The translations under genes and the position numbers were made by a program. From the sequence record PQ471515.1: a DNA stretch of 64,000 nt; one strand, given 5' to 3'. Shown one piece after another: positions 14,516 to 15,613 of the stretch (position 1 is the stretch's first letter; the number at the start of each line of letters is the position of its first letter). The notes beneath the pieces are model-generated. The model did no database searches. It worked only from the letters and a program-made list of their open reading frames with translations, and was not told the DNA's origin. The stretch comes from Escherichia phage Turkey3.

Positions 14516-15613
14516 ATGCCAAATGTAAGTATCAACAAAGAAGAGTTTATCAACCAAATGACTGCTAAGTATGGAGAATTCGATTTCAGTACTTTAGTAT
14601 TCAAGGCAAGTAAGACAACAGTGAAATGTAACAAGTGTGGAAAAGAAAACACCAAACCTGCACTTCGTCACATTGCATGTACATGTGCATCATGTTATTC
14701 AAACATGTCACAACGTTCAAACAACGACACATTCATCAGTACTGTAGAAACTAAATTTGGAAAAGATAAATTCAAATTTGATAAACTAAATTACACTAAT
14801 GCTATATCAAAAGTAACAATTTTCTGCACAGATGAAGATCACAATGATTACTTTGAAATTACACCAAATAAATTTCTTTCTGGTAAAGGATGCCCCGTAT
14901 GTAATAAAAATGAAGCATACAGTACTGAAGAGTTCAAAGAAAAAGTAAAAGATAATTATGGTGATTTATTGGATTTAACTAACACGGTGTATGTAAATCA
15001 AAAAACTAAAGTAACTGTGTATTGTAAAGCAGGTAATCATGAATGGACAGTTGATCCAAAAACTTTACTTGTTGGCAAGACTGGATGTGGTACATGCTCC
15101 GGTAAAGGCGGTCGAAGTACTGAACGTTTCATTGAACTTGTGTCGCCTATCCATAACCATAAGTATGATTATAGCTTGGTGGATTACAAGACTAGTGATG
15201 AACATGTGGATATTATTTGTCCTGAACATGGTGTCTTTAAACAAATACCCAAATCTCATATGGCAGGAAGAGGATGTCCATCATGTGGTGAGTATGGTTA
15301 TCAACCATCAAAGCCTGGATATTTCTATGTACAAAAACTATCTAATAACTCAAAAGTCGTTTACAAATACGGAATTACTGGTGACATGAAGAGGCGAATT
15401 CATGAACAAAGCCGTGATTCTGATTTTGAACACACTGTACTGGTAGAACGTTACTTTGAGGATGGTAACAAACCATTATTATTGGAAAAGTTCATCAAGC
15501 AATACATTGAAAGTGGTGTTGTAAGTACTGAAGAGTTACCATCAGGATTTACTGAAACTTTTGATGCTAAGTATCTTGAAAGTGTTTTGGAAATCGTAAA
15601 TACTTTTAAGTAA
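14516..15613 (+). CDS. four tandem zinc-ribbon modules fused to a C-terminal T5orf172 (GIY-YIG-like) domain
   Basis: Four ~55 aa repeats each ending in a CxxC knuckle (CNKCG, CPVCN, CGTCSG, CPSCG); C-terminal GYFYVQK...KYGIT...R pattern resembles T5orf172 by recall. Confidence 0.55.
   Translation: MPNVSINKEEFINQMTAKYGEFDFSTLVFKASKTTVKCNKCGKENTKPALRHIACTCASCYSNMSQRSNNDTFISTVETKFGKDKFKFDKLNYTNAISKVTIFCTDEDHNDYFEITPNKFLSGKGCPVCNKNEAYSTEEFKEKVKDNYGDLLDLTNTVYVNQKTKVTVYCKAGNHEWTVDPKTLLVGKTGCGTCSGKGGRSTERFIELVSPIHNHKYDYSLVDYKTSDEHVDIICPEHGVFKQIPKSHMAGRGCPSCGEYGYQPSKPGYFYVQKLSNNSKVVYKYGITGDMKRRIHEQSRDSDFEHTVLVERYFEDGNKPLLLEKFIKQYIESGVVSTEELPSGFTETFDAKYLESVLEIVNTFK

Follow-up and report, generated by a model that had tools for sequence, protein, structure and literature searches.

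The window analysed here, a 64,000-nucleotide stretch of Escherichia phage Turkey3 (PQ471515.1), contains next to its major capsid gene an open reading frame (ORF; 14516..15613, + strand) that is very probably a free-standing homing endonuclease gene of an Asteriusvirus jumbo coliphage, with a product made up of four predicted zinc-binding modules followed by a GIY-YIG nuclease domain. This assignment draws on the repeat architecture of the protein, the conservation of its predicted metal ligands, the folds and family links of its domains, the boundaries of the cassette in which the gene lies, the polymorphism of its insertion site and the exchange of blocks within the module array.

Megablast comparisons assign the window to the 121Q/Rak2-like jumbo coliphages (Asteriusvirus); positions 13000-17000 share 95% identity with phage WPEC3 and 88% with 121Q. 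The ORF was confirmed and encodes 365 amino acids (aa), comprising the four zinc-finger modules and then the GIY-YIG/T5orf172 nuclease domain. Its closest protein (98% identity) is from phage CRJP21, its 121Q orthologue is gp604, annotated as 'endonuclease', and it matches PHROG 681 'endonuclease' with an E-value of 7e-76; NCBIfam holds no model for it. A database search with the protein retrieved 1808 homologues, in which module arrays are fused to T5orf172/MUG113, HNH or DUF2726 domains.

A tandem array of four modules

The sequence-only reading had proposed four tandem repeats and had set self-alignment beforehand as the decisive check of their periodicity. For this the N-terminal 268 residues were split into four segments (M1 to M4), which were compared pairwise against 500 shuffles. 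The pairs M2/M3, M2/M4 and M3/M4 gave z-scores of 9.1, 9.6 and 5.7, with none of the 500 shuffles reaching the observed score, and M1 against the other segments gave z of about 3.5, with 3-5 of the 500 shuffles reaching it; no segment was similar to the C-terminal domain. Further, a module hidden Markov model (HMM), seeded by the four segments and iterated over the best 120 homologues, gathered 658 module instances from 121 proteins and recovers exactly four modules in the 365-aa protein. Both approaches thus bear out the periodicity and the number of repeats, and the HMM E-values together with the shuffles rule out chance or low-complexity repeats.

All four modules are encoded on the + strand. 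Module 1 (aa 8-61; 14537..14698) is the most divergent (independent HMM E-value 1e-10) and has as predicted ligands C38, C41, C57 and C60; module 2 (aa 70-130; 14723..14905; 5e-19) has C104, H109, C126 and C129; module 3 (aa 137-195; 14924..15100; 4e-17) has C170, H175, C191 and C194; and module 4 (aa 202-258; 15119..15289; 9e-27) has C235, H238, C254 and C257. The length of about 55 aa originally given for the repeat holds for the module core (54-61 aa), but not for the start-to-start period, which is 62-67 aa. Across the homologues the number of modules per protein ranges from 3 to 8. Beyond this gene, a six-frame translation of the window gave no further hit to the module HMM, and the nuclease domain has no paralogue there either. 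A DNA-level repeat search among the modules returned only short chance matches; the duplication is therefore ancient rather than recent, and the window allele shows no obvious internal substrate for recombination.

All four modules share a ligand pattern of C-x2-4-[C/H], 15-16 residues and C-x2-C, realized as C38xxC41 and C57xxC60 in module 1, C104x4H109 and C126xxC129 in module 2, C170x4H175 and C191xxC194 in module 3, and C235xxH238 and C254xxC257 in module 4. Each module hence carries two metal-binding knuckles, rather than the single terminal CxxC that had been described. Three of the terminal knuckles had been rightly assigned, but the CNKCG sequence taken to end module 1 is in fact its first knuckle (C38xxC41), the terminal one being CASC (57-60). 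The three cysteine positions are occupied in 651-657 of the 658 module instances, the second ligand being histidine in 573 and cysteine in 34 of them, and the module cysteines (including C104, C126 and C129) are invariant among 36 homologues. The consensus of the 658 instances reads TEEFI..A...HG.KYDYS.V.Y.....V.I.C..HG.F.Q.P..HL.G.GC..C. The EEF and YDYS elements, which had been reported as one conserved block, are both conserved in it (the F of EEF in 606 instances; Y, D, Y and S in 562, 479, 566 and 477, respectively) but lie at two separate positions.

Family and fold of the modules

Pfam DUF4379 (PF14311), described there as a 'probable treble clef zinc finger', matches module 3 (aa 157-197) with 26.8 bits against a cut-off of 24.5. 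Additionally, the close homologues all carry a precomputed PF05265 (DUF723) assignment. By these profile relationships the modules are members of the CapR/DUF723/DUF4379 zinc-finger family. Members of the family have two knuckles with four conserved metal ligands, spaced by about 15-26 residues, and all four window modules show this layout.

Structure prediction with AlphaFold2 (AF2), which had been suggested as a further check on the modules, yielded a confident model of the single module from a 60-sequence module alignment (predicted local distance difference test score, pLDDT, 91.8; predicted template modelling score, pTM, 0.77). In this model an N-terminal helix is followed by a beta-hairpin with ligands 1 and 2 in its turn, a short helix and a CxxC that opens the final helix, a predicted arrangement that is treble-clef-like. 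A simple CCHC-type zinc knuckle was considered and rejected as a description of the repeat, the unit being a complete four-ligand domain of about 57 aa with its own helix and hairpin. The full-length AF2 model (pLDDT 85, pTM 0.37) has low-confidence linkers; the low pTM and the weak linkers therefore suggest domains arranged like 'beads on a string'. A Foldseek search of the PDB with the full-length model gave no usable match, the best being 6yxx_E2 (E 3.5e-3) at a root-mean-square deviation of 19 Å, a value explained by the flexible linkage of the domains. Nor did the PDB yield any true relative when its sequences were searched with profiles of the entire protein, the nuclease domain or the module.

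Functional insight comes from CapR of a Vibrio satellite, the family founder, which binds a specific DNA site in gel shifts, and in which mutation of the four cysteines abolishes this binding (PMC8096241). By analogy, we infer that the window protein binds zinc and DNA, and its four modules most likely read DNA. The earlier suggestion of a modular DNA-recognition array attached to a T5orf172 domain gains support from the CapR/DUF723/DUF4379 matches, the CapR gel shifts and the published architecture of related proteins (see below).

The C-terminal nuclease domain

Module 4 is joined by a short conserved 11-residue linker (GEYGYQPSKPG) to a predicted nuclease domain (aa 262-365, 104 aa; 15299..15610, + strand) with a GIY-YIG fold, assigned to the T5orf172/MUG113 branch. 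In the full-length model the order of strands and helices in this domain is that of the GIY-YIG fold. When 16 homologous domains were scanned at E<0.01, MUG113 was recognized in 12 and T5orf172 in 9. A homologous 332-aa protein of phage SHEFM2K scores above the T5orf172 cut-off over positions 4-100 of 101 and matches the HMM of the window's C-terminal domain with an E-value of 5e-28.

Ten residues (Y271, Y283, K284, G286, R293, R294, E297, H306, E324 and E347) do not vary among 36 homologues, the most distant of which share 43% identity. Of these, Y271 lies in GYFYV, Y283-K284-x-G286 in YKYG and E347 in GFTETF, in addition to R293/R294, and by motif position they would supply the tyrosine of 'GIY', the tyrosine of 'YIG', the catalytic glutamate and the arginine of a GIY-YIG active site. 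The invariance of these motif residues argues for an active enzyme.

A probable mobile cassette at a multi-allelic site

The major capsid gene ends in an intrinsic terminator (14415..14434, + strand, by terminator scan; T-tract to about 14443), whose hairpin and T-tract are common to all relatives, those with an empty site included. Similarity to the relatives stops just past it, which marks the left boundary of a homing-endonuclease cassette of about 1.2 kb (14444..15636, + strand). The cassette contains a promoter and the ORF, provides the downstream gene (the counterpart of 121Q gp605) with a new ribosome-binding region and is absent in empty-site relatives. The predicted sigma-70 promoter (14455..14483, + strand) consists of TTGACA, a 17-nt spacer and TATAAT, matching the consensus at 12 of 12 positions. 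In each occupied allele the terminator is followed immediately by a predicted TTGACA-type promoter proper to that allele, whereas empty sites lack one. As a separate observation, the terminator region (14405-14444) is terminator-like on both strands (A-tract, stem, T-tract), and the terminator may be bidirectional.

The flanks of the cassette are 98-99% identical to those of phage fEgEco12, and relatives with flanks of this identity were compared by the interval from the capsid-gene terminator to the gp605 start codon, which is 1203 nt in the window. In fEgEco12 and PBECO4 the site is empty (48 nt and 56 nt, respectively) with shared junctions, and Salmonella SD phages also have an empty site, as judged from locus length. 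The window, WPEC3, Ec-M-J, CRJP21, 121Q, UB, A4 and phAPEC6 carry the 4-module allele (about 1200 nt); Ecwhy_1 and EC.P1 carry a 3-module allele encoding about 305 aa (about 1000 nt); SHEFM2K and TH47 carry a divergent T5orf172 protein of 332 aa (about 1100 nt); and ph0011 carries an unrelated 532-aa DUF7487 protein (1707 nt). The capsid/gp605 site thus exists in at least five states: empty, 3-module, 4-module, divergent T5orf172 and unrelated putative nuclease. The ph0011 gene (2015-3613 in locus L005) has a DUF7487 match (E 1e-13), a weak REase_MTES_1575-like stretch and a TTGACA-type promoter of its own, and is thus a different putative mobile nuclease at the identical insertion point. Presence and absence among relatives, an own promoter and an intergenic site beside an essential gene are features typical of free-standing homing endonuclease genes.

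Comparison of the occupied alleles revealed a mosaic. The Ecwhy_1 allele matches the window allele exactly (100% identity) over module 4 plus the nuclease, and the shared DNA downstream of about 15074 is 98.8% identical; module 1 is missing, and identity in the remaining two modules falls to 41-50%. Among the 4-module alleles, modules 1-2 are 87-100% identical, module 3 is 66-98% identical and module 4 is 77-100% identical. This uneven per-module identity between alleles means that the array evolves by block exchange.

A recoded patch in the capsid gene

Twelve phages have the same 45 residues at the C-terminus of the capsid protein, yet silent changes make the coding DNA of this stretch a patchwork. 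A synonymously recoded patch at the 3' end of the gene (14297..14317, + strand) goes with the 4-module allele: the 21-mer GATAGCACCAGTTCACTAGGT is common to the 4-module genomes, and the others have GATAGTACTTCTTCTCTTGGT or similar sequences, the differences including two-step AGT/TCT serine switches. Over 14262-14331, identity to the window is 92.9% or more in 9 of the 11 other 4-module phages and in none of at least 17 phages with other site states, which reach at most 82.9%. The patch becomes visible only in this wider comparison grouped by allele; among the flanks of three carriers and two empty-site genomes, no single-nucleotide position separates the two groups. The link between patch and allele is a correlation among related genomes, and the patch is a candidate co-conversion tract or cleavage-immune target variant.

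More broadly, the 3' end of the capsid gene (14100-14330) has dense synonymous differences among phages that are otherwise 98-99% identical, with the protein unchanged. At about 14100-14200 the window has 11-13 mismatches per 100 nt to WPEC3, Ecwhy_1 and fEgEco12, against 0-3 upstream. This patchwork looks like the outcome of repeated short recombination tracts beside the endonuclease site.

Proposed mechanism and alternative explanations

From these features we infer zinc and DNA binding, cleavage of a target site and homing along the following lines. In a related phage without the 4-module allele, the array would bind an extended asymmetric stretch of DNA, probably within or close to the 3' end of the capsid gene or in the capsid/gp605 intergenic region. 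The nuclease would cut near the bound site, and recombinational repair templated by the carrier genome would introduce the 1.2-kb cassette, promoter included, together with a short flanking piece of the capsid gene. Exchange of module blocks between alleles would then change the specificity.

Several points weigh against this assignment. For the window sequence itself, T5orf172 (PF10544) scores 16.3 against a cut-off of 20 and MUG113 (PF13455) 16.2-18.1 against 22.3, both matches covering only the first 41-45 profile positions. Similarly, CapR (PF21817) on module 2 (aa 78-129; 19.5 against 24.2) and DUF723 (PF05265) on module 4 (aa 218-258; 16 against 20.9) stay below their cut-offs. Structural resemblance, itself weak, extends only to assembly factors of the trypanosome mitoribosome, which are not DNA-binding proteins; one of them is deposited under the name 'DUF4379 domain-containing protein'. 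The link between patch and allele has two exceptions, phAPEC6 and SP27, and might arise simply from linkage in related phages, not from target immunity. Finally, no experimental work on the 365-aa protein or any Asteriusvirus orthologue was found in the literature.

The structural resemblance raises the question of whether the modules bind RNA or protein instead of DNA, given that the only solved relatives are the DUF4379 trypanosome mitoribosome assembly proteins. The scores of that resemblance are weak, the bacterial and phage arrays are fused to DNA nucleases (T5orf172, HNH, DUF2726) and CapR binds DNA specifically (PMC8096241), which together make this alternative highly implausible. The same precedent of CapR, a module relative that represses a phage capsid promoter (PMC8096241), could be taken in another direction: with the gene directly adjoining the capsid gene, the array might be a domesticated regulator that tunes late gene expression near the capsid operon, its nuclease inactive or vestigial. 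However, the full GIY-YIG domain is retained with motif residues that are invariant in homologues down to 43% identity, the gene is dispensable, as the site is empty in close relatives, and unrelated putative nuclease genes occupy the identical site, which fits invasion and not regulation; we regard a regulatory role as very unlikely.

A role as a weapon against competitors would have the protein cut the DNA of a co-infecting phage, a satellite or the host in the manner of ICP1 Odn, its own spread being secondary. T5orf172 nucleases have indeed been co-opted against satellites in ICP1 (PMC10448857), and the early-type sigma-70 promoter of the gene would give expression soon after infection. 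Against this, a single fixed site with presence and absence, shared junctions and linked recoding of the flank are what homing predicts, and we consider it improbable that exclusion is the primary function. Competitor exclusion and homing can coexist, and the present data do not separate them; a homing endonuclease gene is nonetheless the explanation that we favor.

Relation to known systems

Of 229 T5orf172 homing endonucleases surveyed by Barth et al. (2023, PMC10448857), 87% have CapR, DUF723 or DUF4379 zinc fingers (DUF4379 is mostly printed there as 'DUF4397'), often several in tandem as 'beads on a string', which constitute the DNA-binding region. Their genes lie near essential genes, capsid genes being present in 31% of the neighbourhoods; they differ from isolate to isolate and undergo recombination between repeats (PMC10448857). 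On every point testable here, the window protein agrees with this description. The closest parallels are T5orf172 homing endonucleases such as gp174 and gp165 of Vibrio phage ICP1, which share the N-terminal tandem zinc fingers and C-terminal T5orf172 nuclease and the same habit, being free-standing, beside essential or capsid genes, variable between isolates and recombining between repeat modules. A tblastn search found the window protein to be 32% identical over aa 212-364 to the ICP1 'tcgB putative homing endonuclease'. It differs in coming from another lineage, Asteriusvirus, and in its modules, which score best as DUF4379/DUF723 and not as CapR proper.

CapR itself, from the Vibrio cholerae satellite PLE, has a homologous zinc-finger module and is the only family member with experimentally proven, four-cysteine-dependent, sequence-specific DNA binding (Netter et al. 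2021, PMC8096241). Unlike the window protein with its four modules and nuclease, it is a 15.5-kDa stand-alone repressor without a nuclease; its ligand pattern is CxxC...CxC, whereas in the window modules the second ligand is mostly histidine and the last knuckle is CxxC. The GIY-YIG homing endonucleases I-TevI and T4 Seg have the reversed domain order, the nuclease being C-terminal in the window protein, and their DNA-binding part is built of a zinc finger, a minor-groove helix and a helix-turn-helix instead of a four-fold zinc-finger array; additionally, the window nuclease belongs to the T5orf172/MUG113 branch. With C2H2 arrays and zinc-finger nucleases there is a proposed common principle, in which small tandem zinc domains share a long site and are fused to a nuclease, but the fold is unrelated: the C2H2 unit is a 28-aa beta-beta-alpha finger, the window module a treble-clef-like domain of about 57 aa. 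The only solved similar module, also in tandem, is in the Trypanosoma brucei DUF4379 mitoribosome factors (PDB 6yxx chain E2; 6sga chain Fd), which are very distant, give no sequence match and function in ribosome assembly without a nuclease.

The discovery value of the gene as such is small: GenBank already lists orthologues as 'endonuclease' (121Q gp604, PHROG 681), and a 2023 paper described both the architecture and how to interpret it. What is new is an Asteriusvirus member of the already published T5orf172 zinc-finger homing endonuclease design. No structure, recognition code or mapped target was found in the later literature on this endonuclease class. The Asteriusvirus site could serve as a natural experiment, with alleles that have an identical nuclease and last module and differ in the upstream modules, and is tractable for studying how a zinc-finger array reads DNA, as well as how homing endonucleases give rise to mosaic boundaries inside an essential capsid gene. 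It is conceivable, but rather unlikely, that the modules form a decodable, position-by-position DNA recognition system. If so, each module of about 57 aa would recognize a fixed run of base pairs via the variable positions of F-x-Q-x-P-x-x-H-L-x-G-x-G-C, and natural block swaps, such as the exchange of modules 1-3 before an identical module 4 and nuclease between the window and Ecwhy_1, would retarget the nuclease. Such a system would provide a compact programmable DNA-binding scaffold, unlike C2H2 fingers and transcription activator-like effectors (TALEs).

Neighboring genes and annotation

The 98%-identical CRJP21 orthologue (1820-2917 in locus L007) is labelled 'DNA polymerase II' in GenBank. 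Judged by domain content this label is a misannotation, since the protein consists of zinc-finger modules and a GIY-YIG/T5orf172 domain.

The gene order in this region is the major capsid gene (13196..14371), the 365-aa ORF, a small ORF, a stand-alone T5orf172 ORF (16012..16335) and a tail-fibre gene. The small ORF, corresponding to 121Q gp605, appears in the ORF list with a TTG start at 15628 (15628-15987, + strand); conservation of ATGTTAACTGTATAC among relatives, with GGAG before it, indicates that ATG 15637 is the real start. Its product is an acidic protein of 116 aa, for which no Pfam match was found.

Two genes downstream of the 365-aa ORF lies the gene for the stand-alone T5orf172/MUG113 protein (107 aa; 16012-16335, + strand), which has a full-length Pfam match (E 3e-13) and no DNA-binding domain. 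It did not match the HMM of the nuclease domain of the 365-aa protein, and an hhalign comparison with the nuclease-domain alignment was uninformative, the target being a single sequence. The protein is present in all relatives examined, the empty-site phages included, and 121Q gp606 is annotated as 'GIY-YIG nuclease family protein'. Candidate readings are a nuclease without a targeting domain or the leftover of an older homing endonuclease gene.
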